Assembly: GCA_973895155.1 (NCBI GenBank)
Contig: OZ316899.1
Location: forward strand, 3,245,455-3,309,454
Source of the DNA: Marsupella aquatica
Taxonomy: Eukaryota; Plantae; Marchantiophyta
Direction: 5' to 3'
DNA: 64,000 bases
Shown here: piece by piece, positions 3,627-48,190 of the stretch
Position numbering within the stretch: the stretch's first letter is position 1
Layout of the letters: each line of letters opens with the position of its first letter
Notes under the pieces: model-generated
The model's input: the letters and a program-made list of their open reading frames with translations, nothing else
Databases searched by the model: none
What the model was told of the DNA's origin: nothing
Made by a program: the position numbers and the translations under genes

Positions 3627-3636
3627 AAAGGGGGAG
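3627..3636 (+). promoter_or_regulatory. Polypurine tract
   Basis: AAAGGGGGAG immediately 5' of the 3' LTR. Confidence 0.9.
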
Positions 3637-3778
3637 TGTTGTAACTCATACCTGAGTTAAGTCTACCTTTGGGATAACTACCTATGTAACTACCCTAACT
3701 ACTTAGGCTGTAGCCACATGTACATATTCTACCAGGAATACAGATGGAACAACTTTTTGTCTCATTTATCCCACAACA
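3637..3778 (+). repeat. 3' LTR (142 bp)
   Basis: Identical by eye to 25-166; followed by TSD ACTGG. Confidence 0.97.
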
Positions 3779-4828
3779 ACTGGCAAATTTTCAGAATTTT
3801 CCGAGCCAGGAGTAGAAAGTTAAAAATAGTTGAATTCGGTAAGTCTTTAAGTCTACCACATTCACCGGATTATGCCTTTACGTTTTTATGCTTTTATGAG
3901 TTTACGTCTTTACACTTTTACGCTTTTACGGGTTCTTACTTAGCCATTTCCCGGCTTTTCACTTACTGAATCGCTGTTTTGACTTTTTGAGGAGTATGAA
4001 GAGGCATGTCTCTTCGACCCTATGACCTCTTACCCTATAGGTTTTTACTATAAGACCCCTCCACCACTAGTGTAGTTTATGGTTAAGTTCTGCATTTTTG
4101 CCTCTTCCTTGTGTTAAACTAGTTGATCATGAATCTATGAGTTCGAGATCAGGTTTAACATTTGGAGAGACTTACCTCCTTCTTGTGTTTTTACCTCTGA
4201 TTATAAACACAGGAAGTAAAATCCATTTGTAAGAAATTTTTGGATCTTGTGATGACAGATTCCTTCTTGGTGACTCATTACAAATTCCTAAGTTCTTAGA
4301 GTTAACTCATTGAGTTTATGTCTTATTGAAATTGATGGATTTTCTTTCATGTTGCTTAGTACCATCTAAATCTTGAAGTAGCTACCTTTTAGATCTTATC
4401 TGAGTACCACTTAGAAAGAAAGGATAAGACATGTTGACGGCATTTTAAAAGGTACTCTAGTAAGCATTTTAGACCTGAAAAGCAAACGTGGATTTGAATC
4501 CTTAAGTCTTTTCATTTTGACTTATGTCTAAGGAGTAACCTTGGTCTATTCTAGACTCCCTTAGCGTACTTTGAGATTATTTTCTCTTGTGTTTTGTTAA
4601 TCATTTCCTTTTCATTAATTTATGTTTACATGATGTTGAGTTATCATTGAAAACTACTCACCGCTGTGGAGCGATCTTCAAAATACCTTATTAAAGTAAT
4701 CAAATTTGATTACTATGTGTGGAAACCATCTTTAGTTCTTTGTTATTGTTTAAATCTATCAAACCAACCCCATCTTGTTCTTTACGGGAACGAATACCGA
4801 GTTCGAAGACCTTTAAATGTGTCTTTCC
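3779..4828 (+). mobile_element. AT-rich Athila-like LTR fragment, host of the Copia insertion and cut off by the LINE
   Basis: Shares blocks with 26486-28164: ATGTTGACGGCATTTTA at ~4431 and ~27733; GTTCTTTACGGGAACGAATACCGAGTT vs GTTCCTAAAGGGATCGAATTCCGAGTT; CTATAAGACCCC. Confidence 0.55.
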
Positions 4829-7695
4829 CAAATCAATTGGCTTGGCCAGGGGAAAGAACCTTCTAAGTTCTATTTCTCATTGGTCAAGGCGAAGCAAGTG
4901 AGAGAAACGATGGAATGCCTAATTGGAGAGGATGGCAAAGAAATTAGGGATGAAAATATGATTATCAAGGAGGTTCAGACATTCTGTGAATCACTGTACT
5001 CTCCACCTGAATGAAGTATTGTGGAGCTTCTGGAGATGAGATCTGCTCGTCGGAGGCTTTGCGAACACACTCATTTCTCCCCGTCTGCCACTGAGAACAG
5101 AAATCTAGATATGTTACCTACCTTATAGGAGGTACATGATACTTTGCTCATGCTACCCAATGACAAGGCGCCTGGAGTGGATGGTATGACCGCCGAGGTC
5201 TTGAGGGCCTCTTGGGATTTTGTGAAAACTGATTTCTATGATATGATCTGTGCCTTTTGGAGGACTGGTCATATTTCTTATAGCATCAAGGATGGAGTGA
5301 TCCGCTTTATCCCCAAAAAGATTGACAAGCGGCATCTGAGCGACTGGAGGCCGCTGACGATGCTTACCATTACTTACAAGATTTTGGCTAAGCTGCTTGC
5401 TCGACGACTGATGGTGTTGCTGCCCCGTATGATTAGTCCGCAGCAGGTTTCATTCCCAGTCGGCATATTTTGGAGAATATCTCGCTTACTTGGTTGGCAA
5501 GCGACTGGATTGAATATAGCAGACCCCATCTCTTTTTGCAACTTGACTTTGAGAAAGCTTTTGATAGGGTCAACCATCTTTACATCTGGGAGACTATGAA
5601 CCTTCTAGGTCTTAGTTCACATTTCATCCTTTTGGTACGGTCCCTATTAAGCAACTCTTGCTCTTAAGTTCTAGTCAACGGTCTTTGGTCTGCTGATATT
5701 CACATGTGCAGAGGAGTCCGGCAGGGGTGCCCCCTCTCCCCACTTCTATTTGCTATATCTACTCAACCCCTAATGGATTTCTGCCAGGCAGAGATTGTTG
5801 CTGGTCGTTTGCAGGGACTCAAAATCTCCCCTTCCTTCACCCTCTGTTTTAGGTTGTTTGCTGATGATCTGGGCCTCTTTATCCCTGCTGATGTGATAGC
5901 TTTTGAGCAAGCCAGAAGCACTATTACCTGCTATGAGTGTGCTGCTGGTGCTAAACTCAACCTGGCTAAATCAACCATCATTCCCCTGGCACTTGAAGAG
6001 ATCCCTGGCTGGCTACAGGACACTGGCTGTACAATCAGCCCTGCTGGCATTGTGCGGAGATATTTGGGTGGACCTCTTGGATCTAATCTTACCGAGAAGC
6101 AACTACATTGCTTTTGCTTAGACCGGATTAGTGCACGTCTTGCATCCTGGTCCACTCGCTTTCTTTCCTTCACAGGTCGTCTACTGTTAATCAAGCATGT
6201 GCTTCAGGCCATCCCGGTCTATCACATGATGTTCCTACTCTCTCCCGCTGCTTTGACTAAAAAGCTGATTGCTTTAAACAGAATTTTTCTGTGGGGTTCA
6301 AACCCGCTGGGTGGAAGACGCATCCCACTTGTGGCTTGGGATAAGATGACTCGACCCAAATCTGACGGTGGACTTGGCCTGAAGGACTTCAAGAGTCACT
6401 CTGATGCCCTTCTGTGTAAGTGGTTTACTGGCGCTTTGGACCATCCTGAATCTGAATGGGCTTGCATGTTTGCAGAATACCTTCGACTTACCAAATGGCG
6501 GAACTACAAGGCTATACGTCAAAGCTCTTACTCTATGGCTGATAAGTTGCTACTCTGTACCCCTTGCAGCTTTGGGAGACTTACGTATACAAATCAGTTG
6601 TGGAGTGCCTGGGAGAGAATGAGATCAAATTTGATTTTTTGTCCTACTGAGGCTGATCACATCCCTGGCCAGTGGGGATTTGAAGATATTATCCGCTGTC
6701 TACAAAGGTTCTACAATTTACCTGAGATTGATATTGTGCTGCTAACAAGAACGTTTGGTTCTCTGGGCATCAGGAGAATTTGAGACTTCTGGTCTACAAT
6801 TGATGGCACTTGGAAAAATGTTGAATTACGTCTACCTTGTCTGAGAGGCCTTACACTTCCCAACAAGACTTTATGCCTCTCTCTTGCCGGTGTGATCCGT
6901 GGTTCTCCCTGTGAGGGAGATGCTACTGCTTCTCGTACCTGCATGTGGCGCTGGTTGGATCGGGAGGAGAGAATGAATCGTTTTGACTTAACAAATGCAC
7001 GTGCTTATGAGTTGCTTCGCCCAAAAGGCACTGACTCCGCCCGACTGAACCGGATCTGGGGGGATTTACCGGATGAGGATTGGAATAGAGTGTGGAACAC
7101 TGTGTGGACTTCTGACCTCTCTACCCGTGCTAAGGTCTTTCTGTGGCGGATTATTGCGCAAGGCTTGTTCTCTGGCTCCCGTGCTCTACGGATTGGCAAG
7201 TCGGATGGCTATTGTGGCTTATGTGCTGGGACAATTAGAACTATTCCTCACATTTTCTTTTCATGCCGTCATGCTTGTTGCTGTTGGCTGGAGGTCCACG
7301 GATGGATGGAGGGTGCACTCTGCGATGGATCACCAAGTTTATTCACTCTGATTTTTTCCACTGCAGGGAAACTGTCTATTCGCTCTCTTTGGATTTACAC
7401 GGTTTACCAGATTCTGTGGTGCATTTGGCTAGCCCGTAATGCTCAGACTTTTGACAAAACTCGTCACAGAATCTTTGATCAATTGCTGGTGATCTCTGAG
7501 ATTCTGGACCACTTGAATGCGATTATCACATCCACTTCGGTGCTGTCTACCTCTCTTTTAAGCCGCAAACACCGACGCCTCTCAGGTGCTAAGGGACTGA
7601 TAGAGACAGAACGCATCAACATTCTTAGAAGTGGGGTTAGGAGGATTGAATCCATCCTGGATGGCGGTGCTGCAGGAGGACACCTGACAATTTGA
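4829..7695 (+). pseudogene. LINE ORF2: reverse transcriptase plus zf-RVT zinc finger, disrupted
   Basis: Motifs KAPGVDG, WRPLTMLTITYKILAK, LQLDFEKAFDRV, RGVRQGCPLSPLLF, LFADD, VAWDKMTRPKSDGGLG, CGLC...HIFFSC. In-frame stops at ~5012, ~5126, ~5665 and ~6781, and a frameshift near 5450. Confidence 0.93.
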
Positions 7696-8177
7696 TCCTT
7701 TTTTAGGCTATAGAAGCTCTTAGTTAATAGTTTACTTAGCTGCCCTTGTGTCCGATCTTTCGGAATTTTTGCTCTTATGCCTGCCCTAGATCTTATGACA
7801 ACATTCCGAACTGCTTGACTACCCCCCCTTTTTTTACCCTTGCAGGCTTGGTTGACTGAGAAGCCTTAGGACCATACTTCTGACAAGACATCCGTCCCCT
7901 TGCACTGGCACTATTTTGATTCTACTTTGCCCTTGAGTTGATTAGATGCAACTGTTTGAGTGCCAGTGAACACTTGATTCTTACTAGTTTTCAACATCTG
8001 TGGGATCTGATGTCCTTGACTTTTTTGGACTCTTATTTGTCCTGTTACTCTTTCGCCCTTTGTGGCTTCTGCTGCCGTTTGGCCTGCTGGTTCCCCCCAT
8101 CCGTGGGGTTCACGCGGAATAAAATCAAAATTTAAATTAAAAAAATTAAAGGAAAAGAAAAAAGAAGAAAAAAGAAA
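4829..8177 (+). mobile_element. 5'-truncated L1-clade LINE (non-LTR retrotransposon)
   Basis: Starts mid-ORF2 (QINWLGQGKEPSKFYF). 3' UTR ends in AATAAA (8118) and a degenerate A-rich tail to ~8177. No TSD recognisable. Confidence 0.9.
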
Positions 8178-8179
8178 GA

Positions 8180-9344
8180 CGAGGTCATCCGTCGACTTAG
8201 GGCAAGGGAAGCCGAGGTGGAAGACTTGAAGGCGGCCAAGAAAGCCCAAGATGAGTTGCGGATTAAGCGGCATGAGCTAAACATCATGCAGGGGCAATTG
8301 GATACCGCTAAGTCTGATAATCAGATTATCAAGGATAAATTGACTCGGACCCAGGGGGAACTGGCCGTTGCGGTCAAGGAAAGGGAGAAGTGGAAGCGGG
8401 AGCTAAGGGATGCAGAGGAGGCCCACATAGCAACCAACAATTGGGCCATGGCGGAGACTCAGAGAAGGGAAAGGGCGTTGAAGGGGGAAGTCGAGGATAT
8501 CCGCGGAGCCCTTGAGCAGAAGGAGGCCGAGTTAGGGAAATCCTATCAAGGGATTATTGTGCTGCAGTAGGAGCTTGCATCCCTGACGGCCAGCTTCAAG
8601 GCCGACCTGCGTGAGAAAGACGACCAACTCAATTAGACTTATGCCAAGATGAATAAAATGGAGTCTGAGGTTGTAGCGGAGCTCGACAAGGAGCTAAGAG
8701 CAACACAGGCGGAGAGGGTTACCTTAAAGAAGGAATTGGAGGAAGCCCAAAAGGAGCTGGAGGAGGCATGCAAGGACCTGGACGAAGTGCAGGAGGAGTT
8801 GGAGGAAAGCACGAGGAAGATGGAGAACTTACAACGGCGAGCCGACAACCAACCGGAGCGGCTAAAGAAACAAGCCACAGTATTTAAGTGCTTGGCTTCA
8901 TCAAGTCCAATTGGGGCAACCAAGTTGCCAGGAGTAGTACTGGCCGAAGGACAAGCCGCGACACTTGCACCGGTGCTGGAGATAAGTGGCAAGGGGAAGG
9001 GACCAGCTGCCAAAATAGGGAAGAAGAAGAAGCAAAAACCTTCTGGGTCAGGGAGTAATGCGGCTTCTCAAGCCGCCGTGACAGAGGAGGTACAACCGGC
9101 GCCAACCTCAGGCAGGATCACGGTAGATCCACCCCTAGAAGGCGGGGATGGTAAGGCTGAGGCCAGAACAATCAGTGATGAAGCCGGGGTATCGGATCCT
9201 CCACTAGAGCATGTCGAGGAGGCCGTAGCCGTATTAGAGGCCGTGGCCGATGCTGAGACCAAAGCCGAGGGTGGACCCAGGCAGGCCGATGGAGAGTTGA
9301 CTTGGTCCGGGGCAGGTAATCTGTCAGAGGACGGACCTACATAA
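8180..9344 (+). pseudogene. Coiled-coil plus acidic-tail ORF fragment, probably the C-terminal half of an LTR-borne accessory gene of another family
   Basis: ORFs 8217-8570 and 8649-9344 are in the same frame, separated by stops. Heptad-rich (ELDKELRATQAERVTLKKELEEAQKELEEAC). Downstream TTAGGA repeats and TTAGTGCACC resemble the post-ORF region of LTR 57652-61639. Confidence 0.55.
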
Positions 9345-10307
9345 GTGGCTGCAGAAGAAGCGTTGGGGGCATCCATTGAGGATCAGCCACCACTACCATG
9401 ATGGTGGTGGAGGGCCGCTCCTTTTAAGGAGGGCGGACGTGGAGGGAGGAGGTGTGAGTGGGCAAGGTGGGCTCAGATCTCCAAGTTTAGAATTAGGATT
9501 AGGATTAGGACCAGGAGGCGACCCTGACACTTAGATTAGTGGGATTGCGGATCCACTGGTAAGAGCAACACTTGTGCTTCTGCCTCGCTATACATAGGTA
9601 GATTACAGTTAGGTAGATTAGGCTTACGCTGCAAAGAACTAGGCGGATCCACTGCCAGGATAAGTACCTGGGCTGCGGGGAGTTTGGGGCCTTCTTCTTT
9701 AGCAAGTTTTTAGTGCACCAGCAGGGCTGGGATCAGGTAGTAAAAGAAGCTCTCGGTTAGTTATACTATGACCCTTGTGTATATTCACGTTTCCTCATGC
9801 CTAAGAGATGAATAGAGTTGGCCTCACGGATTAGTTCGCAGATCTTGTGTATGAGAAGTATTGTTTGTATGGCAAGTGCATGGTATAACTCAGTCAGAAG
9901 GAGTCATTTTGCTATTTGTGTGTCGCATTAACTTGTTTGAAGATTGCCCACATCAACCAAGAGAAGGGAGTAAGCAAGGTAGTAAGAGTTGGATGTGTCG
10001 AGCTGAGAGAGGTCTTAGCGGCTTACCAAAGCCAATTGGGGATCATTCCGGCGACGGAATCCAAACATACCTAAAGGAAGACCAAGAGAGGAGACCAAGG
10101 GAAGACATAGAAGAGTCTGGCTACGTATCTCATGACCCGATGAAGGATCTGTCCAGTATATGTGTGTAAAATGTTAGTAGAAGGAGGTTAGCAGCGTCCC
10201 ATGCCGCTAAGCCGCAAAACCGGCCTTGCCAAGGGCGAAACTTGCGGGAATCAGCTTGTGCAGGGGGTTTCTTGGGTTTAGGGAGCCATGGGACGCACCA
10301 CAGCCAC

Positions 10308-10540
10308 TCTGCTTCATATGCATTTAGAGCAGGTGGCCTTGGACTTGTGTGGGACACAGCTCTCCAGCAGTTAGTGGAACCTACTGCTGATGAGAGAGAG
10401 CGTGCTATGGGATTTTTGACTGGCACCACTACAGTGCCTCTGTGTTAGAGGGTTTGCGGCACCAGGTTCTTGGTCAAGCAATGGATCTGAATTGTTTGAC
10501 TTGGACTATCTGCTTGGGAGTAGCTAAACAGTTGCGGATG
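10308..10540 (+). pseudogene. C-terminal remnant (motifs IX-X) of a C5-cytosine DNA methyltransferase domain
   Basis: SYAFRAGGLGLVWDTALQQLVEPTADERERAMGFLTGTT-(frameshift)-GLRHQVLGQAMDLNCLTW fits the DNMT motif IX (E.Er.mGFp..yT) and motif X (R...lGns) pattern. The second part is in frame with the RT ORF at 10751. Confidence 0.72.
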
Positions 10541-10750
10541 CGCTCTGCTGGAATTACCGATTGTCCCTTGGTGAACTTGCGGTCCACTGAGAGAGTACTC
10601 ACCACAACTGGGGGCGAGCAGACAATCCATGGACCTATGGCAGGATTGGCCAAGGCTGAACACATTGTTGAGCAGGAAGGGACTGATCAATCTACTGTTA
10701 AATAGCAATCATCGGCTATCTCTTCTACCCTACAAAGAGATATTAAGGAT

Positions 10751-12042
10751 TTGGTGGAGAGTTGGGAACTACAGCTTGGCCCTAAGTTGACAGGGGAGGA
10801 GAGACGTCGCATACATCAAATCTTGAAGAGTTACCAAAATTGTTTTGCATTTAGCATGAAGGATTTGGGGACATTAAAGGGTCCTGGTATTCAAATTGAA
10901 TTGGCTAGTGATGCGCCAATCTTTTGTAGGCCATACCGTTACAGTGACATGGAGAGAGCTCTGATTCAAAGCAGAACTCAAGATTTGTTGGAGGCTGGAT
11001 TGGTGGAGATTTCATATGGGAAGTATGCATCTGCCACAGTGATGCCAGCCAAGAAGGATGTGCATGGCAATTACACAGATAGGCGCATGTGTGGTGATTA
11101 CATACCCATTAATTGTCAGACAAAATCTGATAGATATGCCATGCCCACACCTGAGGAGATCTTTGATGTTGTGGGGCATGCAAAGGTTTTCAGTTCATTG
11201 GATCTGAGGGCAAGGTACCATCAGCTTCCAATTAGGCATGCTGACAGGTCCAAGACAACATTCTGGGGGATTGATTCTTGTGGCAAAGATCGTTTGTATC
11301 AGTGGTTATTCTTACCATTTGGGTTGAAGAATGCACTAGCTGAGTTCCAGAGAGTCATGGATCGAATCCTTGCAAGTTTGGATTTTGTCAGATGTTATAT
11401 TGATGATATTTTGGTCTATTCTTCTACTGTGGAAGAACATCAGCAGCACTTGCAGATTGTGTTGGAGAGATTGAGAGCACATGGGTTGAAGCTCCATCCT
11501 AGCAAGTGTAAGTTCTTCCTAAACCAGATTGAGTATTTGGGTCACACTATATACCCAGGGGGATTGGGTGTACAGCAGACTAAAGTGGAGGCCATTACAC
11601 AGATTCCTTGTCCTACTGATGTGAGTAGAGTTTGTACATTCTTGGGATTGGCGAGCTACTACAGGAGGTATGTTAAAGGATTTACCCAGCTTGCTAAACC
11701 TTTGACCATACTCACTAAGTTGGATCAGGAATGGATTTGGGGTGATGACCAGGAGCATGCCTTTCAGGAGTTGAAGCAAAGGTTGGCATCATCCCCTATT
11801 TTGAGAAGACCCATTTCAGGCAGACCATTTCAATTACACATTGATTGGAGTGGAGTAGGACTTGGAGCAGTGCTAACTCAGAAGGATGATGAGGGGAATG
11901 AGTTTGTTGTGGCTTATGCCAGTAGATCAAACAATTCAGCAGAGGCTAAGTATAGCTCTTATGAGGGAGAGTGTTTGGCAGCAATGTGAGCTGTTGCACA
12001 CTTTGGTTGCTACTTGTTTGGTAACCCCTTCACCTTGATCAC
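10751..12042 (+). pseudogene. pol: Gypsy RT (YIDD intact) and N-terminal RNase H
   Basis: RMCGDY, KVFSSLDLRARYHQL, LPFGLKNA, CYIDDILVYS, FLGLASYYRRYV, FQLHIDWSGVGLGAVL, YSSYEGECLA. TGG>TGA stop at 11987. Confidence 0.95.
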
Positions 12043-13017
12043 TGTCACACCCATAACCCGGGCCTTAAATCCGAGTTATTTCCTTGGGGCGACCGCAACC
12101 ACCAGTAGGGGTGAGGGTTTGGGCAAGGAGGTGTGTAGTTGTCCTAATTAGCCCTAAATTGGGCTAAGTCAATATACTTACCGGTATAATACTTACACGA
12201 CTCGCATTGATCATAGGTATATTTGTTTCCACCGCTGGAATATTCCCACAGTTAGTGACTCGGACTAACTCCCGGCTTGGGGCTTTCAAGCCATCAACGC
12301 GACAAAACCTTGTGACATGCAATTGGTGGCAATCCCTACCATTAGTCTACACCCGGTACGTCCCTTGAAATGGCGCCTTTGCCCAGACAAAGCATACACA
12401 CAACACCAGTTACACGCGGTAGAATCAGAGGGAAAAGACTACATTTACTCAGCAAAAAATCAGTTTACATAGTTGACTCGACTTCTAAGGGGGTCAGCAG
12501 GCCTAACGGCAATCGATGCCCAGTCTCTACGAGGCCCCGCCTTGCACTTGCCCCGCATGCTTGACTCTTGCTCTCACTCCTTAGTGCACTCTGACCCTGC
12601 TCAGGCCGGGACTCCCCGTGCCTTGCCTTTTCTTGCACTAAGATAACTAAGCCTTCTCCCTGTCCTACAGCAGAAGGGGAAGCCTAAATACTACGTTTGC
12701 GGAAAGGAGCCGGAAGATACTACCTCCCGGGGTAATGCCTACTGACTAACTACCTTCTGACTAACCGGCCGCACTCCTCTGACCGGTTGACCGTCAGTGG
12801 CGGGGGCGCTGATCGGGGTGGCAGTAGCTAAGTCTACTGACCAAAATTCTAGTCCATTGATGGACTCTATCCTACGTCGGCTGATCCTAATTGATCCTGT
12901 CCTAATTCTTCCTTCGGCGCCTAATGACAGCTATTTTGTTGTTAAGTCTAATAAAATAGATGCTGCTGACTCAACTGCCTCGCGCAGCGCCTACTCACAC
13001 CCTTTGCTAACCACCCC

Positions 13018-15482
13018 TTACATGCATGCTGTGGTTGGACCAGGGTTTGTCCCCTTGTCGGGGCGAGACCTCAACCTGCCTTGATCAGAGGTGAGTCCAG
13101 GTCTTGCCCACTGGAGGACGAGCAGGGTAATGCGATCCTACAAGGCCTTGTTATCCCGTACCGCCTCCTCTGCCTCATTTGCAGCTTTGTCGGCCTTGGT
13201 CTGAAGCCATGCTACCTCTAGGCTAAGCTAGCCGATGGAGTCACGATGGGCCTGGTCCTGCGCCAGCAATTTATCTCGCTCGACGGAGAGACTAGCCACC
13301 TGCTGAGCTGCTTGCAAGAGTTGGTTGTTGAGGTCGGTCAGGCTGGTAACCCAAGCCGAGGATTATGAGTGCAATTGAAGCATGGTGTCGTCCAGCTTCT
13401 TGAGATCTGCTTGCGCCGCGCTCAACTCTTGGCTTAGTCCATCCCGTTGTTCAACGGTTCAAACTAACTCCTCACGGCGGGTAGTGGCCTCCTCTTCGAG
13501 GTGTTCTACTAGCATTTGGAGGCGCCTGATCTCGTTCCCCTTTGCCATGAGTTCTTCCTCCAAGCGGCTTACGATCTGCAGTTGGTGCTCTAACATGAAG
13601 AAGGTTGGTTGGAAGTACGCCGAGACCTATTGTCCGATGTACGTTGCCAGCTCCCCTGATAGAGTCTGACTAAACTTCTGGACCAGGTCGTAGGCCATGG
13701 TCCTCGCGGCTACTTGGTAGTCCTCCATCCTCTCGGGCACCAGTGGTTCCTCGGGCGGGGCGGCGAGCTCCTCCGTAGTCTGCAATGGGGAGGGGAAGGT
13801 TTCTTCAGGTGGTGGAGGGATTGGGGGTGGTTGTACTGGGGGTAGCGGAGGCTCGACTGAAGGGGGCGGTGGAATTTCAACGGGAGGAGGTGGTAGAGTA
13901 TTAGCCGGGGCCACAGGCTTGTGGTTTGCTTGAGGCGTGGTAGTCCGCTCGCTCGGGGTAGCCTCCTCCGGAGCGGGGGTGACACTAGTTGGGGCTGAGG
14001 TGGCCATATTCTTTCCCTTGGCCTCCCGCCACGCTTTGTACTAGGCGAGGATGATGGCGATGTGACTTCCCAGGTAGGTCCTTCCTCTGATAGACATACC
14101 TCCTTGAGTCCGCCTAAGCTCCCCTGAGACTGCGGTAAAAGAATTGGGCCCAGTTCCGTCGTTTGTACTGTTCCACCTGTACGATCGTATAGAGGGAGAT
14201 CTCGGATCGTGGCTCAATCATGTGTAGGGTAGTCCGTATGAAGTTAAGCCGCTCCATACAGACTAAGTTGGTGCATGACCCTTGCTTGTACCCATTGTCC
14301 GTCTTACCCTCGGGTTTGAAGTGTCGGGGTGTATACTCTTTATCCCGAATTTGGAGTTCAACCGACACCGGCCCGCTTGGCAGACAAATTAAAAGATATG
14401 TGCCAACCGATGCTCCGTAAGTGATAAGGTCTGCCCTGAAACCTTGGTGATCGCTGCGTCAGTGTTGAAGTTGGATATGAACTCATAAACCTCCCTTGGT
14501 CCGACTGCGTTAAGTCTCCATAGCAAGTGAGCAAACTGCTCCAACTGATGCTCCTTGAGATAGTCCGCGTGGTTGGGTTTCTTGATCGCGGTCCAGACAA
14601 CCTCGGGGACGTGGATTACCTGTAATAAGTTAGGCTGTTGATTATCCGAGGGCCATCGAGTCTGGTTGGTCGGTGGGTTAGCCTGGGCAGGTGTAGGGGC
14701 GGCGTTGGTTTGCGTTGTTGGTTCGGGGGCCGGCGTCGTCCTTGCCCGCTTCCAAGAACGCTACTCAAGCTGCGGACTAACACTGAACCCAAGGAACACT
14801 CGGTGTTGTTCACGGGACGGACTTGGGACCGGTTAGGTGGTACGCCGGTGGTCATCGGCTGAGGGGCTAGGGGTGGCGTCGGGGTGGCCATATCCCAGTT
14901 GAAGGCATTGGAGCTTTCCCCGAGGAACGTAAGATTACGCGTCGCTTCCTGTTGTCTGTTGATGTCTTCTTCATGCTTCTCGGTTGCAATCTGCTGGTCG
15001 ATGTATCCTGGGATCTTGTCAAACTCCATTGGAGTCAGCCTCTGGCTGCCCCTCAGCCTAAAGAACTTTGCGGGGACTTCAAGAATTGCCTCTGCTACCA
15101 ATCTAAACCCCTCCTCGCTGATATATAGCTCGGTGATGTAGCCCCGCAACTCGTTGTAGCTGGAATCCCTGGTAATGGCTGTCTTCTCACAGTTAACCTG
15201 TGCTACCCTGGCCACCAACTTCACGTATCTTTGTTTGTAAGCGGCTTTCTCGGGGCAAGAGTACCAATAAGTCTCGGAGAACTTAGCACCTACCTTGCCA
15301 AACAAGGTCCAAAATCCCAAGGCTGTAAGGGTCATACTAACCTTTGTAGTCTGGTTTGTCGAGTCCGCGTTCCCGCTCGGCCGGTTCGCTCCCTGGTGGA
15401 GGCCTTACTTGTCCTGACTAAACCCCGCCACAATCCGCTCTTACCCCTCGATAATTTCCTCGTAAAAGTTAACTTGATTTGA
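13018..15482 (-). pseudogene. LTR-borne accessory gene, degraded copy
   Basis: Fragments MTLTALGFWTLFGKVGAK..., ...IEPRSEISLYTIVQVEQYKRRNWAQFFY..., ...EETFPSP...MAYDLVQKFSQTLSGELATYIGQ match ORFs 40387-41643 and 39247-40326. Several C>T/G>A stops. Confidence 0.9.
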
Positions 15483-15833
15483 GCAAAAGGCGAGAGTGAA
15501 TGGCAGCGTCCGCGAATTCCAAAAGGTATGAATGAGCAAATGGGCCACAGCGCCATCGACTCAACTCTTATGGAGGTGCCGGGGTGAGCTCAAGCGTGAG
15601 AAGGCGAGGCCGTTTTGGTCGTTGATAATGACCCAAAGTTGGGTGTCTCGGTCCAAGCGTGATCTCCTAACAGATTTTTACTCCGCCACCGCCACCGTAC
15701 CTCGGTCAATCGTAATAATCCCTTTTCCTTAATTCGTAATCATTCAATCAACTAACCTACTCCTAATCTATTCATAATGGCAAAGATGGCTATTCGTGTT
15801 ACTCTACGCTATGGCTATGGTCCTAATGACCAT

Positions 15834-16666
15834 TGTCGCGTGGACTTTAAGTTAGGGGCTCCTCGGGCAAACTACACGCTTCTGGCTGCGATCAGGACAG
15901 GTGACAAGCACTTTTCGGAGCAAACTCTCACTCCTTTTAATTTTTTACTTTTCTCACAAAGGTTACAATAGGTGCCCTCGAGTAAGCTTGCCCGCAAGAG
16001 TCTGGTAGCTGGCCCTACGGCGGGCCGCTACCTCTAACTTGTCGGGTAGAACTCCTCGAGTGACTAACTACTCAAAATCTGACGGAAAAACTATCCTCAG
16101 CTCACAAAACCAAAACTCGACTAGCTACTCCACTAGTCTAAAATAGCTCGCACGGAACTCGGGCCTGGACCAACGAGGCTCCAAACTCGAGAAATTCCCG
16201 CCTGGATCAACGAGACTCCAGACTCAAGAAACTCCCCGCCTGGATCAACGAGACTCCAGACTCGAGAAACTCCCCGCCTGGATCAAAAACTCCTTGCCTG
16301 GATCAAAAACTCACTCCGAACTCCAAAACCAACGCACGACAGCCGAGTTTCGCAGAACGGAGCGTAACTCAACCGACGTCAATAGACAACCGTCAACCTC
16401 AATGAGCCGAGGCTCAAGTCTTAAGTAGCATCAGAAACCCAACCATCCAGCCTGAGCCAGCTGCCATCAGCGAGGCTCATCCAAACTCCAAGCCTGGTGA
16501 CTCACCCAAACACCAAACCTGGTGACGATGAGTCACCCAATCACCAAACCTCAATCCATCCAACCAAGCAGCCCCTCCGAGTCAGCATGCATGCAACCCA
16601 ACCGGGAGGCCTCGTCCATCATCCCCTATAAAAGCCATTCCTGAGCCAAAATCATTCGGCACGACA
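15834..16666. mobile_element. 833-bp solo LTR nested in the solo LTR
   Basis: TGTCGCG...CACGACA termini, flanked by CCAT/TCGT. Removing it restores TGACCGTATAAG as in the young LTR, implying a 4-bp TSD CCGT. Contains ~37-bp tandem repeats (CCTGGATCAACGAGACTCCAGACTC...) at ~16165-16310. Confidence 0.8.
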
Positions 16667-16725
16667 TCGTATAAGTCCTAATCTAGGACTTGCATTTGGT
16701 TAAGTGACATGTTATCCGTGTCACA

Positions 16726-18380
16726 ATCATTGATCATCAGCCTCTTAAGTGGTTAATGGAGTCTGACAAGCTTACAAGGAAGCTTGCACGATGGGCATTG
16801 TTGTTACAAGAGTATGATTTCCAAGTGGTGCATAGGCCTAGAAAAGTGAACTTGGATGCAGATGGATTATGCCGCAATCCATGTACCAATCAACAGGATG
16901 AGACTAGAGCTAGATGGCATGATGAGTCAGATAAGGAGATGGTGCCAGGATGACATGCATCTGCCTTTCTTTGTTGGGTGCCAACATACAGTGGATCTGT
17001 GGACTCTATCTCATTGGATGGAGTGAATGATGAGTCTTCAGATGTGGATGTTGGTGAGGTAACTTCTGGACAACAAGATATTCACAATGATGTGAGAGTG
17101 TTGGAATATTTGCGCAGTGGTTCTATTGTTGGCAGTATTGATACCAAAGAATGTGACAGGATTCTACAGAGAGCCAAGAGGTTTTGATGGGAGGGAAACC
17201 ATCTTTTGAGAGTACTGCATGATGGTAGGGTGTTGGTGGTACCAAAACCATCACAATGAGTACATTTGGTGCAACATGCACATGAGGAGTTGGGTCACTT
17301 TGGTGTGAAGCGCACTTACAGCTTGCTGCAGACACAGTATTGGTGGCGTGGTATGCACACTCATGTCCAACAGTTGATAGCTAAGTGTGTGGTATGTGAT
17401 AGAGTGAGAGCATCATTTAATGCTCACACTCCCCAATTGCACCCGTTGCCGATCATGGGTTTGGGATATCGTTGGAGTTTGGATTTTGCTGGTCCATTAC
17501 CTCTTACCCAATGTCATAATCGGTATGTTTTGGTCATGGTGGAGCACTTCTCCAAGAGGATTGAGCTAGTGGCATTGCCAGATGAAGCCAGTGGAAGAGT
17601 TGCTGCTACATTTTTGGATCGTGTACTCAGTCATTTTGGAGCACCAGCTGAGGTGTTGACTGATCAGGGAACTGAGTTTCGTGGAGAGTTTGAGAGTTTA
17701 TGTGAACAAGCTCTGATTGATCATTGTACTACCTCTCGTGATCATCATGAGGCAGATGGATTAGCTGAGAGAATTGTGCAAACTGTGAAGAGAGGATTGC
17801 GTAAGTATGACTTGCAGGTTGGTCATCTGGGAGATTGGGATCTCCAGCTACCTTGGTTAGCTATGGGCTACCATTTCAGTTGGCAAGCATCACTTGCATC
17901 CTTCTCATCTTACTTTTTGCTCTATGGTAGAGAGCCAGATTTGCCAGATTTGCCAGCAGCTATTCGTTGTGATGCTGCACCTATTGTGAACTTGGATGAT
18001 CCTGATGTTTGGGTCAAGGTGTGTTCAGAGAGAGCACGAGTATTTCAGAGAGTGATGCCCATGGCTTTTGACAAACTTGCAATTGCCCAACATCGTGATA
18101 CTTTGAGGTATGCCACTATTCGTGGAGGAGGTTATTGTGCAAGCATTCGACAATTTCATCTTGGTGATTATGTTTATTTGCAGCAGACAACACCCACAAC
18201 ACTTGATATGACCGCAGGCCAGACAATCTTACGTGTGCGTGAAGTATTGCCTTTTGGTGTCCTGATGTTGGAGGGACGCGATGATATGGTTTGGAAGGAT
18301 CATGTGCGCAACTGTGCTTCATGTCACCTTCCCAACATTGATGGTACAGTAGATCTAAGCTTGGCACATGTTTGTGCTGG
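16726..18380 (+). pseudogene. pol: RNase H end, integrase zinc finger and core
   Basis: DHQPLKWLM, RWALLLQEYDF, HEELGHFG...WWRGM...CVVCDR, WSLDFAGP, LTDQGTEF, DGLAERIVQT. CGA>TGA and TGG>TGA stops. Confidence 0.93.
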
Positions 18381-18387
18381 CTTGAAA

Positions 18388-18527
18388 TGTATGTTGTGTG
18401 GATCTGCTCAAGAAGCAGCTACTATGTTGATTTGTGATAAGTGTTCTAGAGGATGGCACATGTCATGTTGACACCACCATTGTAGGTGATTCTTAATGGA
18501 TCATGGTTGTGTCCTCAGTGTCGGTGA
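18388..18527 (+). pseudogene. PHD finger (C4HC3) at the integrase C-terminus
   Basis: CMLCGSAQEAATMLICDKCSRGWHMSC then, after a 1-nt shift, LTPPL*VILNGSWLCPQCR*. Confidence 0.9.
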
Positions 18528-18702
18528 AGCCGACTAGTTATCATTTGTGTTCTCTTGGTAGATATGGATTGCAGGTAGGTGATTGATGAGGCTCACTTGC
18601 ACCCGGCCTCTTGATCTTCATACCTAAAAAAGTGTATATCAACCTTCTAGAACTCATGGCTAGCTAGAGTTAGGGGACCTTACTCCCATCTAAGGGAGCA
18701 AT

Positions 18703-19305
18703 TGTGGGTTTTGGACATGTGTGGACATGAGTTCCACTTGTATTCCATTCTCTTGTGTTTGTGATGTGGCAGTGTGACTATGTCTGGATGTATGTGACAA
18801 GCGATGTATGTTGTGTAGCGATGTGTATGCGCACGATAACTGTCACACCATTCTAGGTAGTGTTAGAGTGTATCGTACTATCTAGATCCGTATGTTTGGT
18901 ATGTGTGCTATATGAGCCGATAAGGTTCCATCAAGTTTGTGTGAGAGGGTACTTCTCACTCGTGAGGCATTGAAAGGTCATCTTTCAATGTTGGGCCTTG
19001 GAGAGAGAGGAGCTTGAGTGTGGCTATGGTGGCTGTGAGCTCTGCTTGTGTAACATGGATTCCTTGAGTAGTGCAAGGTGCGTTGGCTTAACATACGTGT
19101 GTGATCGGATCGGTGCGGGATCGATGGGGTATTGTTGACCGAGATCATTGTGCCGATTGTATTGAGATTATTGTGGGTTTTGGACATGTGTGGACATGAG
19201 TTCCACTTGTATTCCATTCTCTTGTGTTTGTGATGTGGCAGTGTGACTATGTCTGGATGTACACAACAAGCGATGTATGTTGTGTAGCGATGTGTATGCG
19301 CACGA
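18703..19305 (+). repeat. 3' LTR region of the DNMT/PHD Gypsy with a 134-bp direct repeat (18703-18836 and 19172-19305)
   Basis: Starts TG after the PPT; the second copy is cut off just before the element starting at 19317. Confidence 0.7.
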
Positions 19306-20574
19306 CAGTTGCCAGTTGGTGGCGCGCCCATTATGCGCGATAGGATCCGGGTTGGGGCCAAATGTTTAGGGACCAAAGTTGGTCCGGGGGTGGCAGGTCT
19401 CCAGAAGCATATATGAGGGGAGTGGTGTCTCCCTGGGGGCTAAGGGCGAGCCGAAGTCATGAGCCGCGGCGGTCGCGACACTAAGGGAAACCGCCAAACG
19501 AAAACAACGATATCTTCCCAACGAGAAGTCCGTTGGAGGACTTCTTGGGTGTGTTGGAAAGCCCTCAAGGAGGGCTATGTCCTCCTGAGCTTAGCTGGGT
19601 CGGGGGAAACCATGGGTTCTCGGGGTTTGCGGGGTGTTAACTCGCCCGCTTGCCAAATCTTGCTGAACAGCAGCCAAACCACGTTCAGTCTCCCAAGGGA
19701 GCTTGCGTTAGGGAGGCAAGCCCAAGTAGGTGTGGAGGTGGAGTTCCAAGAGTGCTTGATCCCTAGACCGTCAGTGAGGAAAATTGGGAGTTGGTGGCTA
19801 GAGTCGGGGTCATTCTGGTCCCGGCGTGTTGGGACAAGCTTTAGGACAGGCTACGCTATTTGGGCCATGAGCATGTCCTAGGGTCAGGGCGGTCTTTTGG
19901 TGATGGATAGGTACGAGGGGGAACCCGGGCCATGCCCAAGGAAGGATTTGTTTTGGACAAACAGTGGGCGTGGGTTTTGGTTCCGGCTTATGGCATTGGG
20001 AGGACCTATCGTTGACCTATTTACCAATGTCTGTTGAGCTTGAGTTAGGATGCTAGACTTGGCGAGATCTAGATCCTGAAGGGTTACCAAGGTGCTTGGT
20101 TGCTTGTGCAGACAATGAGGACCGTTGAGTAGCGATTGCGTTGGAGAGCAAGTGCGGCTTTGTATGGGAGGGGTTGCTGGTGGTGCAAGGGGCACTAGGG
20201 TGCTTGCTTGAGGTATTCTGTGGAGGCGTTTGAGCACCAGGGGCACTTAGGCGTGGGTGTTGGGATTGGTGAGGGCGCTGGGTGGTTAGGTCCACCACTT
20301 GGTATTAGAGCAATTGTTGGCATAGACACCGGGCCGGGGTCGTGTTAAGTCAGAATCCAAAAATCTTAACAGATTTTTGCGGGGACTTAGTGTGTCAACA
20401 TGTCCGGCGGGTCGATTGCAGGCAAATTTGGTCACTATGGACATGGCTAAAAGCACTCGTTCAAAGAGTGGCAAATAGGCTCCCCCCACCAAGGGGAGAG
20501 CCCAGGTTCCAAAAGAACAGAAGGAAGACGGGTCAACTTCCCTAGACAAACGTTACAAGCAAGACGATGAGGAC

Positions 20575-28643: not shown

Positions 28644-30359
28644 CACTAGTACAATTTACCTCCTTTTTCCGACCCTCTTCGCATCGGACGCCTTTGTAAA
28701 ATAAAATCTGAAAAAACCATATATCCAATTCTTCCAACATTGTAATATGCCATGTTAATAGTATCGGATATCGACAATCGGACTTCTATCAGAAAGTCCA
28801 ATGGTGAGAACATGGGAAAGTCCAATGTTGGGAGAATGGGAAAGTCTGATGCTCAAAGAATGGGAAAGTCCGATGGTGAGAGCATGGGAAAATCCGATGG
28901 TGGGAGCATGGGAAAATCCAAAACAATTAAAATGGGATAAGCATAAGATATCTATTGGAGCGGGAGCATACAATCACCCCTCTCTCCCTTTAGATTTCAC
29001 TCTTCATTCTTCAACTACAAGTGTGGTGCCCCATCTCCTTTTATTACCAATTAATTGGTCACCCATCCCAGTTGTTATTCCTTGAGCATGCGCATAACTT
29101 GGTGGTTTCTATCCCTTGCATTGTACATGCAAGCTTAGTACTTTTGATGATTGACTTAGAGTGTTTGGGGATTTTATACACTTCTGAATTCAAGTTTCCA
29201 TTTACCAACTAATTGGTCACCCATCCCAATGGCTATTCCTCAAGCATGAGCTTAACTTGGTGGTTTATATTCCTTGCATTGTACATGCAGCAAGCTTAGT
29301 ACTTCTAATGTTTGACTTGGAGTGTTTGGGAATTTTATACACTTCTTGAATTTATTTAGACCCATAATTTGGACCCATTCTTGATTGATTTTGCTGTACC
29401 ATGACATTTGATTTTTGTGTGATCTATTCAAATTCCATTCTGACTAGCACTCCCTTGGAGTAACCAATAGGAATTTGAGGTCATTTGTGGATAGTAAAGC
29501 CCTCCTTTATTAATTGGACCTGATATGGGATATGGCTTATTTGCTAATGGAACAAATTTTAGTCCCTCCAAACCTCGGCATCAATGGCTCTTGATTGTCT
29601 CACCTTCATGAATTATGTTGTTGATGAACTTGCAACAAAGACTACACGGGACAAGCAACCTCCTTTCAGATGATCTATTTTAGACTTTGCATCAGTACGT
29701 GCATACTACCAGAAGGGAACAACATGTCGAGGTCTTGAAAGGGGACAAAAAGGACATTGCAATCTATTGGCCTCAAGTATGAAATTATTCATATATGCAA
29801 GAATGATTGTGTACTCTTTGGGGGGGAGTATGAGAGATGTGTGCAATCATAACTTGTCATTCTACCACAATCAAACTTTCCCATTCTTCCAGCATTGGAC
29901 TTTCCCATTCTCCAAGCATCGGACTTTCCCATTCTACCAGCATCGGACTTTCCCATTCTCCAAGCATCGGACTTTCCCATTCTACCAGCATCGGACTTTC
30001 CCATTCTCCCAACATCGGACTTTCCCATTCTACCATAATTGGATATAATGTCCGTTATTATCAACTACGGAAAATTTTCAATCAATATTGCAACGCACAC
30101 TATTTCCGGTACAAACAACATTGGACCTATCAAACAAAGTTTTGTTGAGGGATCCGATGTATTTTATAACGGATACAATCCGTTTTTTCACGCATCGGAA
30201 AGGATTCTGTTGGTATTTACATCGGAAAAGAAGATATCCAAAGCCAAGAGTATGGCATATTGCCATTCTGTGAGAATGGGATTTTCCGATTTCAGGAGAA
30301 TTAGACGCCGATTGTTTGCAAAAACTGAGCATCGGAAAAGAGCATAATATGTTCTAGTG
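28644..30359. mobile_element. Non-autonomous CACTA (En/Spm) DNA transposon, 1716 bp
   Basis: TIRs CACTAGTACA / TGTTCTAGTG; 3-bp TSD TGA (28641-43, 30360-62). Inverted subterminal arrays of a 24-bp repeat (ATGGGAAAGTCCGATG...) at ~28810-28920 and ~29875-30030. Internal ~158-bp duplication (29045/29203). No transposase. Confidence 0.93.
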
Positions 30360-38263: not shown

Positions 38264-41200
38264 TGTCGCACCCCTACCCTGGGCCTTAAATCCGGGTTAG
38301 TGTCGTGGTGCGACCTCGACCACCAGTAGGGGTGAGGGTTCGGGCAAGGAGGTGTGTAGTGACCTTCAATAGCCCTAAGTCGGGCTAAGCCGCTATACTT
38401 ACTGGTATAACACTCGCATAATTCGTACTTGTCATAGGTATATTTATTTTCCACCGCTGGAATTTTCCCTCAGTTAGTGACGCGGACTAACTCCCGACTT
38501 GGGGCTTTTCAAGCCATCGACGTGACAGGACCTTGTGACATGCAATGAGCGGCAATCCCTACCATTAGTCCGCACCCGGTACGTCCCTTAAAATGGCGCC
38601 TTTGCCCGGACAAAGCATACACACAACACCAGTTACTCTCAGAAACATTAAGGGGAAAAGACTACATTTACTCAGCGAAGCATCAGTTTACATGGTTGAC
38701 TCGACTTCAAAGGGGGTCAGCAGGCCCAACGGCAGTCGATGCCCAGTCTCTACGAGGCCCTGCCTCGCACTTGCCCAGCAAGCTCGACTCTGGCTCTCAC
38801 TCCTTGGTACGCTCTGACCCTACTCAGGCCGGGACTCCCCGTGCCTCGCCTTTCTTCTGCTGAGATAACTAAGCCTTCTCCCCCTTCCCATCGCGGAAGG
38901 GGAAGCCTAAATACTACCATAGCGGAAGAGAACCGGAGGATACTACCTTCCGGGGTACTACCTACTGACTAACTAACTGCTGACTACCGGTCGCGCTGCA
39001 CTGACCGGTTGACCGTCGACTACGAGTGTGCCAACCGGAATGGCAGCGGCCAAGCCTACTGACAAACTCTAGTCCGTTGATGGACTCAATCCTACGTTGG
39101 CTGATCCTAACTGACCGGCCCTAATTCTTCCTACTGCCGCTAATCGGCGCCTAATGACAGTCATTCTGTCGTTACGCCTAACTAAAAGATGCCGCTGACT
39201 TAACCGCTTCGCGCGGCTCCTGCTTCTACCCTTCGCTAACTACCCCTTACGTGTGTGCAGTGGTTGGACCAGGGCTGGTCCCCTTGTCGGGGCAAGACCT
39301 CGAGCTGCCTTGATCAGAGGTGGGCCCAGGTTTTCCCCGCTGGAGGACGAGCAGGGTGACGCGGTCCTGCAAAGCCTTGTTGTCCCGTAATGCTTCCTCC
39401 GCCTCGTTTGCAGCTTCGTCGGCTTCAATCTGGAGCCGCGCCACCTCCAAGTTGAGCTGGTCGATGGCGTCGCGATGGACCTGGTCCTGCGCTAGCAATT
39501 TATCTCGTTCGGCGGAGAGACTAGCCACCTGCTGTGCTGCCTGCAGGAATTGTTTGTTGAGGTCGGTCAGGCTGGTAACCCGAGCCAAAGATTTTGAGCG
39601 TAATTGAAGCACGGTGTCGTCCAGCTTCTTGAGTTCGGCCTGCGCTCCGCTTAACTCCTGGGTTAGTCCGTCCCTCTGTTCGACAGTGCGGACTAAATCC
39701 TCGCGGCGGGTCGTTGCCTCCTCCTCAAGGTGCTCTACCAGCATCTGGAGACGTCCGATCTCATTGCCCTTCGCCATGAGTTCTTCTTCCAAGCGGCTGA
39801 CGATCCGTGGTTGGTGCTCTAACATGAAGAAGGCTGGCTGAAAGTACGCCGAGACTTGTTGTCCGATGTATGTCGCCAACTCCCCAGACATAGTCTGGCT
39901 AAACTTCTGGACCAGGTCGTAGGCCATGGTCCCCGGGGCTACTTGGTAGTCCTCCATCCTCTCGGGTACCGGTGGTTCCTCGGCAGGGGCAACGAGCTCC
40001 TTCGTAGTCAGCGCTGGGGAGGGGAAGGTTTCTTCAGGTGGTGGAGGGATTGGGGGTGGTTGTACTGCAGGTAGCGGAGGCTCAACGGAAGGAGGCGGTG
40101 GAATTTCCACAGGGGGCGGTTGTGGAGTATTAGTCGGGGCTTCCGGCTCAGGGTTTGTCCGAGGAACAGTAGTCCGCGTAGTCGGGGTTGCCTCCTCTGG
40201 GGCGGGGGTGACATTACCCGGGGCTGAGGTGGCCGTATTCTTTCCTCTGGCCTCCCGCCGTGCCTTGTACCAGGCGAGGATAATGGCGATATGACTCCCC
40301 AAGTAAGTCTTCCCTCCAATAGCCATACCACCCTGAGCCCGCTTCAGCTCCCCCGAGAATCTTCGGTAGAAGAATTGGGCCCAGTTTCATCGTTTGTACT
40401 GTTCCACCTGCACTATCGTGCAGAGGAAAATCTCGGATCGTGGCTCAATCATGTGTAGGGTAGTCTGTATGAAGTTAAGCCGCTCCATACAGGTTAAGTT
40501 GGTGCACGCCCCCTGCTTGTATCCGTTGTCCGTCTTACCCTCGGGTTTGAAGTGCCGCGGCGTATACTCCTTATCCCGAATTCGGATTTCCACCGGCACC
40601 GGCCCGGTTGGTAGGCCAAAAATTTGCGTTAACCGATGCTCCGTGAGTGATAAGGTCTGCCCCGAAACCTTGGTGGTTGATGCATCAGTGTCGAAATTGG
40701 AGATGAACTCACAAATCTCCTTCGGCCTGGCGGCGCACGGCCTCCATAGTAAGTGGGCGAACCGCTCCAACTGATGCTCCTTGAGATAGTCCGCATGTTC
40801 GAGTTTCTTGATCGCGATCCAGACTACCTCGGGGACGCGGATTACCTGTAATAAGTTGGACTTCGGGTTATCCGGGGGCCGTCGGGTCTGGTTGGTCGGG
40901 GGGTTTGCCGGGGCAGGTGCAGGCGCGGCGTCGGTCCGTGTTGATTCGGGGGCCGTCGTAGTCCTTGACCGCTTACGAGGACGCTGTTCCAGTTGCGGAC
41001 TAGCTCGCTCGGAACCTGAAGAACACTCCGCGTTGATTACTGGACGGACTTGGGACTGGTTCGGCGGTACTCCGGTGGTCATCGGTTGAGGCGCTGGGGT
41101 AGCCATATCCCAGTTGAAGGCATTGGAGCTTTCCCCGAGGAACGTGAGATTACACGCCGCTTCCCGTTGTCTGCTGATGTCTTCTTGGCGCTTTTCGGCT

Positions 41201-42101
41201 GCGATCTGCTGGTCTAGGTACCCCGGAATCTTGTCGAACTCCGCTTGAGTAAGCCGCTGGTTGCCCTTCAGCTTAAAGAACTTAGCTGGAACCTCAAGAA
41301 TCGCCTCTGCTACCGATCTAAGCCCTTCCTCGCTGAGATATAGTTCGGTGATGTAGTCTCGCAGCTCGTTATATCTAGAATCCCTGGTGATGGCTGTCCT
41401 TTCGCAATTAACCAGTGCTACCTTGGTTACCAGCTTCGCGTACCTTCGTTCGTAAGCGGCTTTCTCGGGGCAAGAGTACCAGTAAGTCTCGGAGAACTTA
41501 GCACCTACCTCGCCAAACAAGGTCCAAAATCCCAAGGCTGTGAGGGTCATACTAACCTCGTAGTCCGGTTCGTTGCGTCCACGTTCCCACCTGGCTGGTC
41601 CTTTTTCGCGGAGGCCTCGCTCGTCCTGACTAAATCTCGCCACATTTCGCTCTTTTCCCTAGATAATTTCCTCGTAAAGGTCGACTGGATTCAATCAAAA
41701 AGGCGAGCGGATGGCAGCGTCTGTGAATTCCAAAAAGGTAAACGTGAGCGAATGGCCCGCAGTGCCATCGGCTCCTCTCTTATGGGGGTGCCCGGACGAG
41801 CCCGAGCGTGAGAAGGTCAGGCCGTTTGGTCATTGATAACGAGCTGAAGTCGGCGTCTCGGTCCAAGCGTGATTCTTCTAACTGATTTTTACTCCGCTGC
41901 CGCCACCGTACCTCGGTCGTGCGTAATAATCCCTTTCCTGAACTCGTAATTATTCGGTTATCTCAACCTACTCCTAATCTAATCATAATGGCAACTTGAC
42001 GGCTATACGTGCTATTCTACGCTATGGCTACGGTCCTAATGACCGTATAAGTCCTAATCTATGACCTGGGTTTGGTCAAGTGACACGTTACCCGTGTCAC
42101 A
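38264..42101 (-). repeat. 3' LTR (3838 bp)
   Basis: About 99% identical to 48191-52028 by eye (~17 substitutions in the first 1.5 kb, mostly transitions). Confidence 0.97.
39247..41694 (-). pseudogene. LTR-borne ~815-codon accessory gene (3' LTR copy), split by an in-frame TGA at 40387-40389
   Basis: ORFs 40387-41643 and 39247-40326 are in the same frame, 20 codons apart (KR*NWAQFFYRRFSGELKRAQGGMAIGG). An extra premature TAG lies near the 5' end relative to the 5' LTR copy. Confidence 0.85.
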
Positions 42102-46235: not shown

Positions 46236-46319
46236 TGGACTATTCTTGTCTGCGACCGCCTCTTTCTGCTGGGCATCCTTTCGATCTCGTTCTTTGTACT
46301 TATCCTTCTTGCGGGATGA

Positions 46320-48076: not shown

Positions 48077-48155
48077 GCCCCTTCCTTCACGTCGAGTACA
48101 AAATCAAAAGTTACTAGCTCACTACACGGCTCCACTCGTAAGGCGAAATGAGTGC

Positions 48156-48173: not shown

Positions 48174-48190
48174 AAAAACCGGTCGCCGTA

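Follow-up and report, generated by a model that had tools for sequence, protein, structure and literature searches.

Why should a transposon carry an enzyme that silences transposons? An answer has been lacking since 2018, as the hosts known so far are algae in which genetics is difficult. The question is raised anew by a locus of the liverwort Marsupella aquatica, where the end of a cytosine methyltransferase precedes the reverse transcriptase (RT) of a Ty3/Gypsy element. The window analyzed here is a stretch of 64,000 nucleotides of contig OZ316899.1, and all coordinates refer to it.

The methylase fragment and its element

The initial annotation assigned a short peptide before RT to the C-terminus of a C5 cytosine methyltransferase that had lost its catalytic N-terminal motifs by 5′ truncation. 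The features of the element and of the long terminal repeats (LTRs) that interrupt it are as follows.

9453–10302, + strand: LTR of an unrelated family, truncating the methylase and not the element's own (purine tract, then TG at 9453)
10302–10504, + strand: C-terminal fragment of a DNMT3-like C5 methyltransferase with one frame break (homology to relatives, profile match)
10505–10702, + strand: linker closing the Gag-protease-methylase (Gag-PR-DNMT) ORF (the similar proteins P0319 and P0132 end at the same residue, the window's last codon before the stop)
10703–10711, + strand: stop codon TAG, then CAA TCA, which fits the CARYYA readthrough motif (linker alignment)
10712–12042, + strand: RT and most of RNase H, with a premature TGA at 11987–11989 (Pfam RVT_1, E 2.7e-29; RT_RNaseH_2, E 5e-25)
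12043–16725, − strand: nested 4.7-kb solo LTR of another Gypsy family, not the element's own (5-bp target duplication ATCAC/ATCAT)
16726–18513, + strand: end of RNase H, H2C2 zinc finger, DDE integrase core and C-terminal PHD finger (Pfam)
18686–18700, + strand: decayed polypurine tract (G-richer in other copies, clear in relatives)
18701–18838, + strand: repeat B1 (97% identical to B2 over 136 nt)
18831–18848, + strand: internal attachment-site-like junction of B1, 2 nt and A2 (loose ends of other copies begin at 18841)
18841–19169, + strand: repeat A2 (diverse flanks before 18841 in other copies)
19170–19307, + strand: repeat B2, the right end of the element with ..CA at 19306–19307 (diverse flanks past 19307 in three of four runs)

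With motifs IX and X, the fragment covers the final ~70 residues of a DNMT3-like C5 methyltransferase from a Ty3/Gypsy element. Its homology to relatives begins at 10302, not at 10308, and a frame break lies near 10434–10445. Both peptides of the fragment are present, EPTADERERAMGFLTGTT in the frame starting at 10302 and RHQVLGQAMDLNCLTW in the frame of the RT. They contain the end of the target-recognition region, motif IX (ERERAMGF) and motif X (LGQAMD). The two pieces are 87% and 60% identical to P0319, a protein with a complete methylase domain. Residues 626–693 of Marchantia MARPO_0091s0058, which directly follow its methylase core, match the fragment with an E-value of 1e-17, and the 47-residue piece has 87 representatives at E ≤ 0.001 among 1.84 billion. 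These alignments place the match far beyond chance. Pfam assigns no family to the two window ORFs that hold the fragment, and thus the methylase call rests on the relatives.

A profile of 134 full domains matches the window in six frames only with its positions 253–326; motifs I–VIII are therefore absent. The missing 5′ part of the methylase, the protease and gag were found nowhere in the 64-kb window. A word-based search for the linker among proteins of 931–2655 residues recovered none of 781 candidates. The loss of the N-terminal motifs, proposed initially, coincides with the end of a foreign LTR. Contigs from four runs break sharply at 10302. Copies of the element run upstream from 10302 (two runs) or 10305 (a third run) into sequence that reads as the missing methylase, and other copies of the upstream repeat pass 10302 into a primer-binding-like sequence in all four runs. 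Because these copies run on into such a site, 9453–10302 is the LTR of another family; its left end probably lies at 9453. In two of the runs the stretch is covered by 1772 and 3776 contigs, as a family of high copy number would explain. A broken, coiled-coil-rich frame (8136–9400) just ahead of the purine tract of this LTR looks like an extra 3′ ORF of that element.

The element spans 10302–12042 and 16726–19307, split by the 4.7-kb solo LTR. Its second part contains several stops and one frame break. It scores above the Pfam cut-off for RT_RNaseH, Integrase_H2C2 and rve, and the PHD finger of this broken copy stays below (E 0.0012). Since RT-RNase H, integrase and PHD finger carry stops or frame breaks, the window copy is dead. 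The solo LTR is 83% identical to 38264–42044 and 48191–51971, and thus belongs to the family of a young full-length Gypsy element at 38264–52028. It is ~0.8 kb longer than these two copies, with extra sequence near 15832–16667. In the young element, 9927 nt separate the two 3.8-kb LTRs, which are 99% alike in the single block of 300 nt that was compared; its minus-strand pol at 42057–46319 has an open frame of 1421 residues. Its LTRs hold two long frames (379 and 423–435 residues), without a Pfam hit in the copy scanned.

A search with the RT yielded 1390 proteins at E ≤ 1e-50. Among the 120 matches listed, at least 14 carry PF00145, two of them Marchantia models; the domain scores above the cut-off in all 14 proteins chosen for bearing it. 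In a relative from the metagenome scan described below (L002), the near-intact domain is 72% identical to the first piece of the window's fragment. It matches DNMT3A with an E-value of 1e-11, and the alignment includes the motif IX/X segment that corresponds to the fragment. The predicted model of this domain (pLDDT 96) finds DNMT3A (6f57) as top Foldseek match (E 3.6e-20, TM-score 0.84 over the target). Motifs I, IV (catalytic Cys), VI (EN), VIII (RxR), IX and X occur in unpermuted order in the 134 full domains of the relatives. The catalytic Cys is kept in 131 of these, Glu and Asn of motif VI in all 134, and the two Arg of motif VIII in 131 and 133. Sequence and predicted fold thus identify the relatives' domain as a DNMT3-type C5 cytosine methyltransferase, and DNA methylation is its predicted activity. 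The initial reading of the peptide as a C5 methyltransferase C-terminus is thereby confirmed and narrowed to the DNMT3 type; the absence of motifs I, IV and VI from full-length relatives, which would have spoken against it, is not observed. Assignment to a dUTPase, a protease or a chance ORF is rejected on account of the DNMT3A sequence match and the DNMT3A-like predicted fold. Plant domains-rearranged methyltransferases (DRM) have a circularly permuted motif order. A DRM identity is likewise rejected, owing to the order I to X and to DRM matches (E 4e-5 or worse) far below that of DNMT3A.

Gene order and the stop codon before RT

In a metagenome scan 79 loci were collected, of which 69 are close relatives (60–78% identity) and 10 are distant. 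The order protease, methylase, RT is fixed in all loci wherever covered, which agrees with the initial placement of a methylase before the RT of a Gypsy element. A gag with two zinc knuckles lies in the methylase's frame in four loci (L002, L016, L049 and L065). The family layout is Gag, zinc knuckles, protease, DNMT3-like methylase, stop, RT, RNase H, integrase and PHD finger.

From the single TAG (10703–10705) before the RT ORF (10706–11986) it had been concluded that the methylase was part of pol. The TAG is indeed the only one, but the conclusion is not supported in this form, as the stop is a conserved feature. In 47 linkers with both sides in reach, the window's included, the stop column is TAG in 34, TAA in 12 and GAG in one, i.e. 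a stop in 46 of 47. It is directly followed by CAA in 46 linkers, and the frame is kept through the stop. The linkers are mostly of one family (44 of 47), so that the support for the stop amounts to about four independent families. In the locus L080, whose family is 63% identical to the window over RT-RNase H (P0006), TAG CAA TCA is identical to the window and lies between open frames for Gag-PR-DNMT and for RT, RNase H, integrase and PHD finger. L080 and L081 are eukaryotic-type retrotransposons in a cyanobacterial genome bin of GTDB, likely a contamination. Furthermore, 46 of 132 full-domain proteins are without RT, RNase H and integrase, and many end 47–134 residues past the domain. Another 13 of the 132 models continue from the methylase into RT without a stop, some of them probably spliced by gene callers. 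Comparison of the linkers thus marks the TAG at 10703 as conserved and not as decay.

Because the stop is conserved, the Gag-protease ORF ends with the methylase, for which readthrough is likely the only link to RT. The type I readthrough motif of tobamoviruses is UAG CAR YYA (PMC3542737), and the contexts of the window, L001, L002, L005 and L080 fit it. The most sampled family differs in having CAA CCC (41 of 47 linkers) followed by ATG, and readthrough in these elements is predicted from sequence. RNA folds predicted 3′ of the stop, without comparison to shuffled sequences, differ among four families, with no common fold. The RT-integrase ORF might instead be made separately, with the same layout: ribosomes may reinitiate at a start codon just behind the stop, or a shorter or spliced RNA may serve as the message. 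An in-frame ATG two codons past the stop in 43 of 47 linkers (GTG in three) would suit this, as would several intact RT ORFs called from a start ~20 residues before RT (P0003, P0005 and P0006). However, the window has TCG where others have ATG, L080 has no ATG there, and both the CAA after the stop (in all four families) and the frame through it are kept. Separate production is therefore considered unlikely, and readthrough of the stop is the likely way in which the methylase reaches RT.

Ribosomes would read through the stop only now and then. With readthrough only occasional, the methylase in front of the stop would be made at the levels of a capsid protein. Bulk production is apparently not needed throughout the family, because of the 13 stop-free models and because one large clade has its methylase between RNase H and integrase.

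Element ends and integration

The 3′ end in the window reads polypurine tract, B1, CA-NN-TG, A2, B2. In the least decayed relatives the junction palindrome is GACAGCTGTC. In other copies of the window's family, the flanking sequence varies outside 18841, where they begin, and 19307, where they end. A1, the partner of A2 at the 5′ end of the element, is absent from the window, and the A1/A2 pair is found in L015, L016 and L061. L015 is complete (A1..B1-A2-B2) with TG..CA ends and the target duplication AAGG. L033 has the form A-internal-B with the duplication TACA, and L020 has the duplication CACA. Target duplications of 4 bp are thus present in three of the four loci with both ends; L061 lacks one because its 5′ end is eroded.

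Among the 22 B copies that follow a purine tract, 12 (10 independent) run into flanking sequence and seven into NN-TG-A. The remaining three are unreadable (two deleted junctions, one cut by a contig end). NN is GC in L015, L016, L027, L054, L080 and L081 and AC, AT or GT in five others, the products expected from deamination of GC. The mirror form A-B-GC-A-internal-B, a predicted product of two-LTR circles, was seen at none of nine 5′ ends (seven independent), a number too small for its exclusion. A TGG-initial primer-binding site after A1 is likewise present at none of the nine 5′ ends read. A short predicted hairpin (L015:1034–1054 and equivalents) takes the place of the tRNA primer-binding site. 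Complementarity between the sequence after A1 and repeat A, as for self-priming, amounts to 12, 10, 8 and 11 nt at differing places in four loci and is inconsistent. In L019, L020, L052, L054, L067 and L068, inverted pieces of A or B are joined to internal sequence in an autointegration-like manner.

The order protease, RT, RNase H, DDE integrase and the TG..CA ends with target-site duplication are those of Ty3/Gypsy elements, but split repeats replace two full terminal LTRs and a tRNA primer-binding site. DIRS, Ngaro and PAT elements have a tyrosine recombinase and no target duplication. Membership in these groups is rejected because of the rve integrase and the 4-bp duplications.

As relatives end in TG..CA with 4-bp duplications at the palindrome, the integrase likely cuts inside the LTR. 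We infer that the true LTR is B-GC-A and that its internal palindrome is probably the site of cleavage. Reverse transcription would yield a cDNA with the LTR B-GC-A, beginning at the polypurine tract. The integrase would then leave the cDNA ends untrimmed and cleave the palindrome within the LTR. A-internal-B would result if both LTRs of the linear cDNA, or a one-LTR circle, were cut. A single cut of an end-joined two-LTR circle would give A-internal-B-GC-A-B, the window's form and the only observed one that would keep the repeat needed for another round. The circular assembly of L080 was set aside as a sign of circles, since collapsed repeats give the same result. A precedent is the foamy virus integrase, also a DDE enzyme, which cuts a palindromic LTR-LTR junction of the type CA-NN-TG after CA (PMC1180852). 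That palindrome is described as arising only when the cDNA ends are joined (PMC1180852), whereas here it is a fixed part of the LTR, with the actual cDNA ends predicted to lie at other places.

For elements of the Ngaro/PAT type, split repeats have been proposed to be copied as a whole from one RNA. If the same held here, with an RNA spanning A1 to B2, the A2/B2 joint would be inherited and not formed by end joining. Such copying would account for the joint being nearly identical in six loci (L015, L027, L034, L055, L056 and L061) and for the mirror form not being seen. It is at odds with the extra internal bases at the joint of L019/L020 (one insertion), as end joining would leave them, and with the single B as commonest form (12 of 22). 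Moreover, the enzyme is a DDE integrase with target duplications and not a tyrosine recombinase. Copying as a whole is thus rather doubtful, and cleavage of the LTR-internal palindrome is preferred. If the end anatomy results from such cutting, it would represent a distinct integration route, of which no description for LTR retrotransposons was found in the searched literature. LTR-pair finders likely miss or mis-delimit the family, given these ends.

Range, known relatives and role of the methylase

A quick tree of 120 RT rows places the window beside L002, Marchantia, Calypogeia and L004 (support 97); together they sit in an 18-row group that includes Coleochaete and L080 (support 99). The expectation of a land-plant lineage carrying the methylase is borne out by such relatives. 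The nearest named relatives also point to a liverwort host. Further named organisms with the methylase or its motif IX region are Spirogloea, Cymbomonas, Closterium, Haematococcus, Tetraselmis, Monoraphidium and Chromochloris. The domains that follow RNase H, 73 in number, all belong to a single clade of 78 rows (support 99), which includes Haematococcus, Monoraphidium and Chromochloris and has the methylase between RNase H and integrase (P0072, P0078, P0104, P0050, P0281 and others). Three Klebsormidium RTs are placed in a neighboring group (node support 88, quick tree), and their protein models hold no methylase. The trees contain neither host DNMT3 nor an outgroup and are compatible with one or several origins. 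Among viral contigs, the RT query found no relative and the alignment query one distant RT.

This kind of element has been published for Klebsormidium nitens (KnitGypsy-Dnmt3; de Mendoza et al. 2018, PMC5890265), in line with the kinship in kind suggested initially. It is called "streptophytes (Gypsy-DNMT3)" in bioRxiv 10.64898/2026.05.21.726589 and likewise referred to as streptophyte in PMC12344493. The published description agrees in an unrearranged, intron-free DNMT3-type domain in the Gypsy coding region with conserved catalytic residues, and in DIRS-like repeats (Fig. 4 legend, PMC5890265), which compare with A1..B1-A2-B2 (L015, L061) and B1-A2-B2 (window) here. Purifying selection on the methylase (Ka/Ks < 0.2) belongs to the published element; here conservation was assessed from the residues of the 134 domains. 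In the published description the domain is presented as acquired within the K. nitens lineage and as belonging to the Pol ORF (PMC5890265). Here, relatives occur in liverworts, Zygnematophyceae and chlorophytes, and the methylase, although in RT's frame, is the last domain of the Gag-PR ORF and is followed by a conserved stop. For the ends, TG..CA termini and 4-bp duplications could be assigned to an internal palindrome; this comparison is with the published description only.

SymbioDIRS-Dnmt3 of Symbiodinium, also a DNMT3 carried by a retrotransposon, is, according to PMC5890265, alone among such enzymes in having been shown to methylate CG de novo in yeast. It belongs to a dinoflagellate DIRS element, whereas a DDE integrase and a Gypsy RT are found here. 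The EpiLTRs of Cymbomonas and Euglena also combine an LTR element with a cytosine methylase and a chromatin reader, but their methylase is sister to DNMT4, lies at the 3′ end of pol with DAM and a chromodomain, and is called distinct from Gypsy-DNMT3 (bioRxiv 10.64898/2026.05.21.726589). In the searched literature, with most subscription papers outside its scope, no description from land plants or chlorophytes was found, nor a report of the conserved stop or the end anatomy, including split repeats in Gypsy and CARYYA with retrotransposons. No paper on the Marchantia gene ids was found, and the accessible part of PMC11982613 holds nothing relevant. Land-plant sequences may be included in the supplements of PMC12344493 and bioRxiv 10.64898/2026.05.21.726589.

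For the role of the methylase, packaging with the particle and methylation of new cDNA before integration is, on balance, the preferred reading. The PHD finger, in L080 nearest to those of CHD4, PHF12 and UHRF1, would likely tether integration to histone H3 tails. Taken as a whole, the account of Gag-to-PHD layout, occasional readthrough, self-methylation of cDNA and integration at the internal palindrome is held with moderate confidence. CpG depletion as a footprint of self-methylation was rejected, as it is inconsistent and confounded by age: observed/expected CpG is 0.19–0.29 in the window copy, 0.26 in L002 and 0.73–0.84 in intact L080. Differences of the window copy are not enriched at CG (8 of 35 sites listed, against a background of 35%).

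An active methylase might act on another target, namely the integrated copy, rival elements or host chromatin, or might bind or modify RNA. No CG-depletion signal is common to intact members, the Klebsormidium domain gave no methylation in yeast, a result that its authors call inconclusive, and alternative roles are listed in the same paper (PMC5890265). On the other hand, the predicted fold is that of the DNA enzyme DNMT3, and the methylase would be brought to the cDNA from either of its places, as part of the Gag-protease polyprotein or, in the sister clade, between RNase H and integrase. Other targets are thus improbable. The window copy alone, with its ~70 residues and no Pfam hit, could suggest a passenger, i.e. 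a piece of a host DNMT3 gene that one element picked up and that has no role in its cycle. This is refuted by the complete, intron-free domain at the same place in dozens of loci and by the catalytic residues kept across 134 divergent sequences.

Methylation of the element's own cDNA remains preferred. A more tentative view, possible at best, extends it to an ancient Gypsy lineage throughout green plants, from chlorophytes to liverworts, with DNMT3 made at capsid levels by a leaky stop, pre-methylated cDNA and LTR-internal cutting. Since Marchantia polymorpha has long Gag-PR-DNMT reading frames (e.g. Mp4g09160 and Mp8g17980), a model plant for which methylation mutants exist can serve to test the question. 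For bryophyte genomes, a second source of de novo methylase would also bear on the reading of methylomes and of DNMT gene counts.

Elsewhere in the window, a decayed LINE with RT lies at 4817–7695. At about 1000–1758 (1513–1755), between two identical 143-nt repeats (24–166 and 3636–3778), lies what remains of a plant GAGA-binding (BPC/BBR) gene, which may be a captured copy. Two inverted arrays of 24-nt tandem repeats (28792–28937 and 29834–30067) are ~950 nt apart, like subterminal repeats of a transposon.
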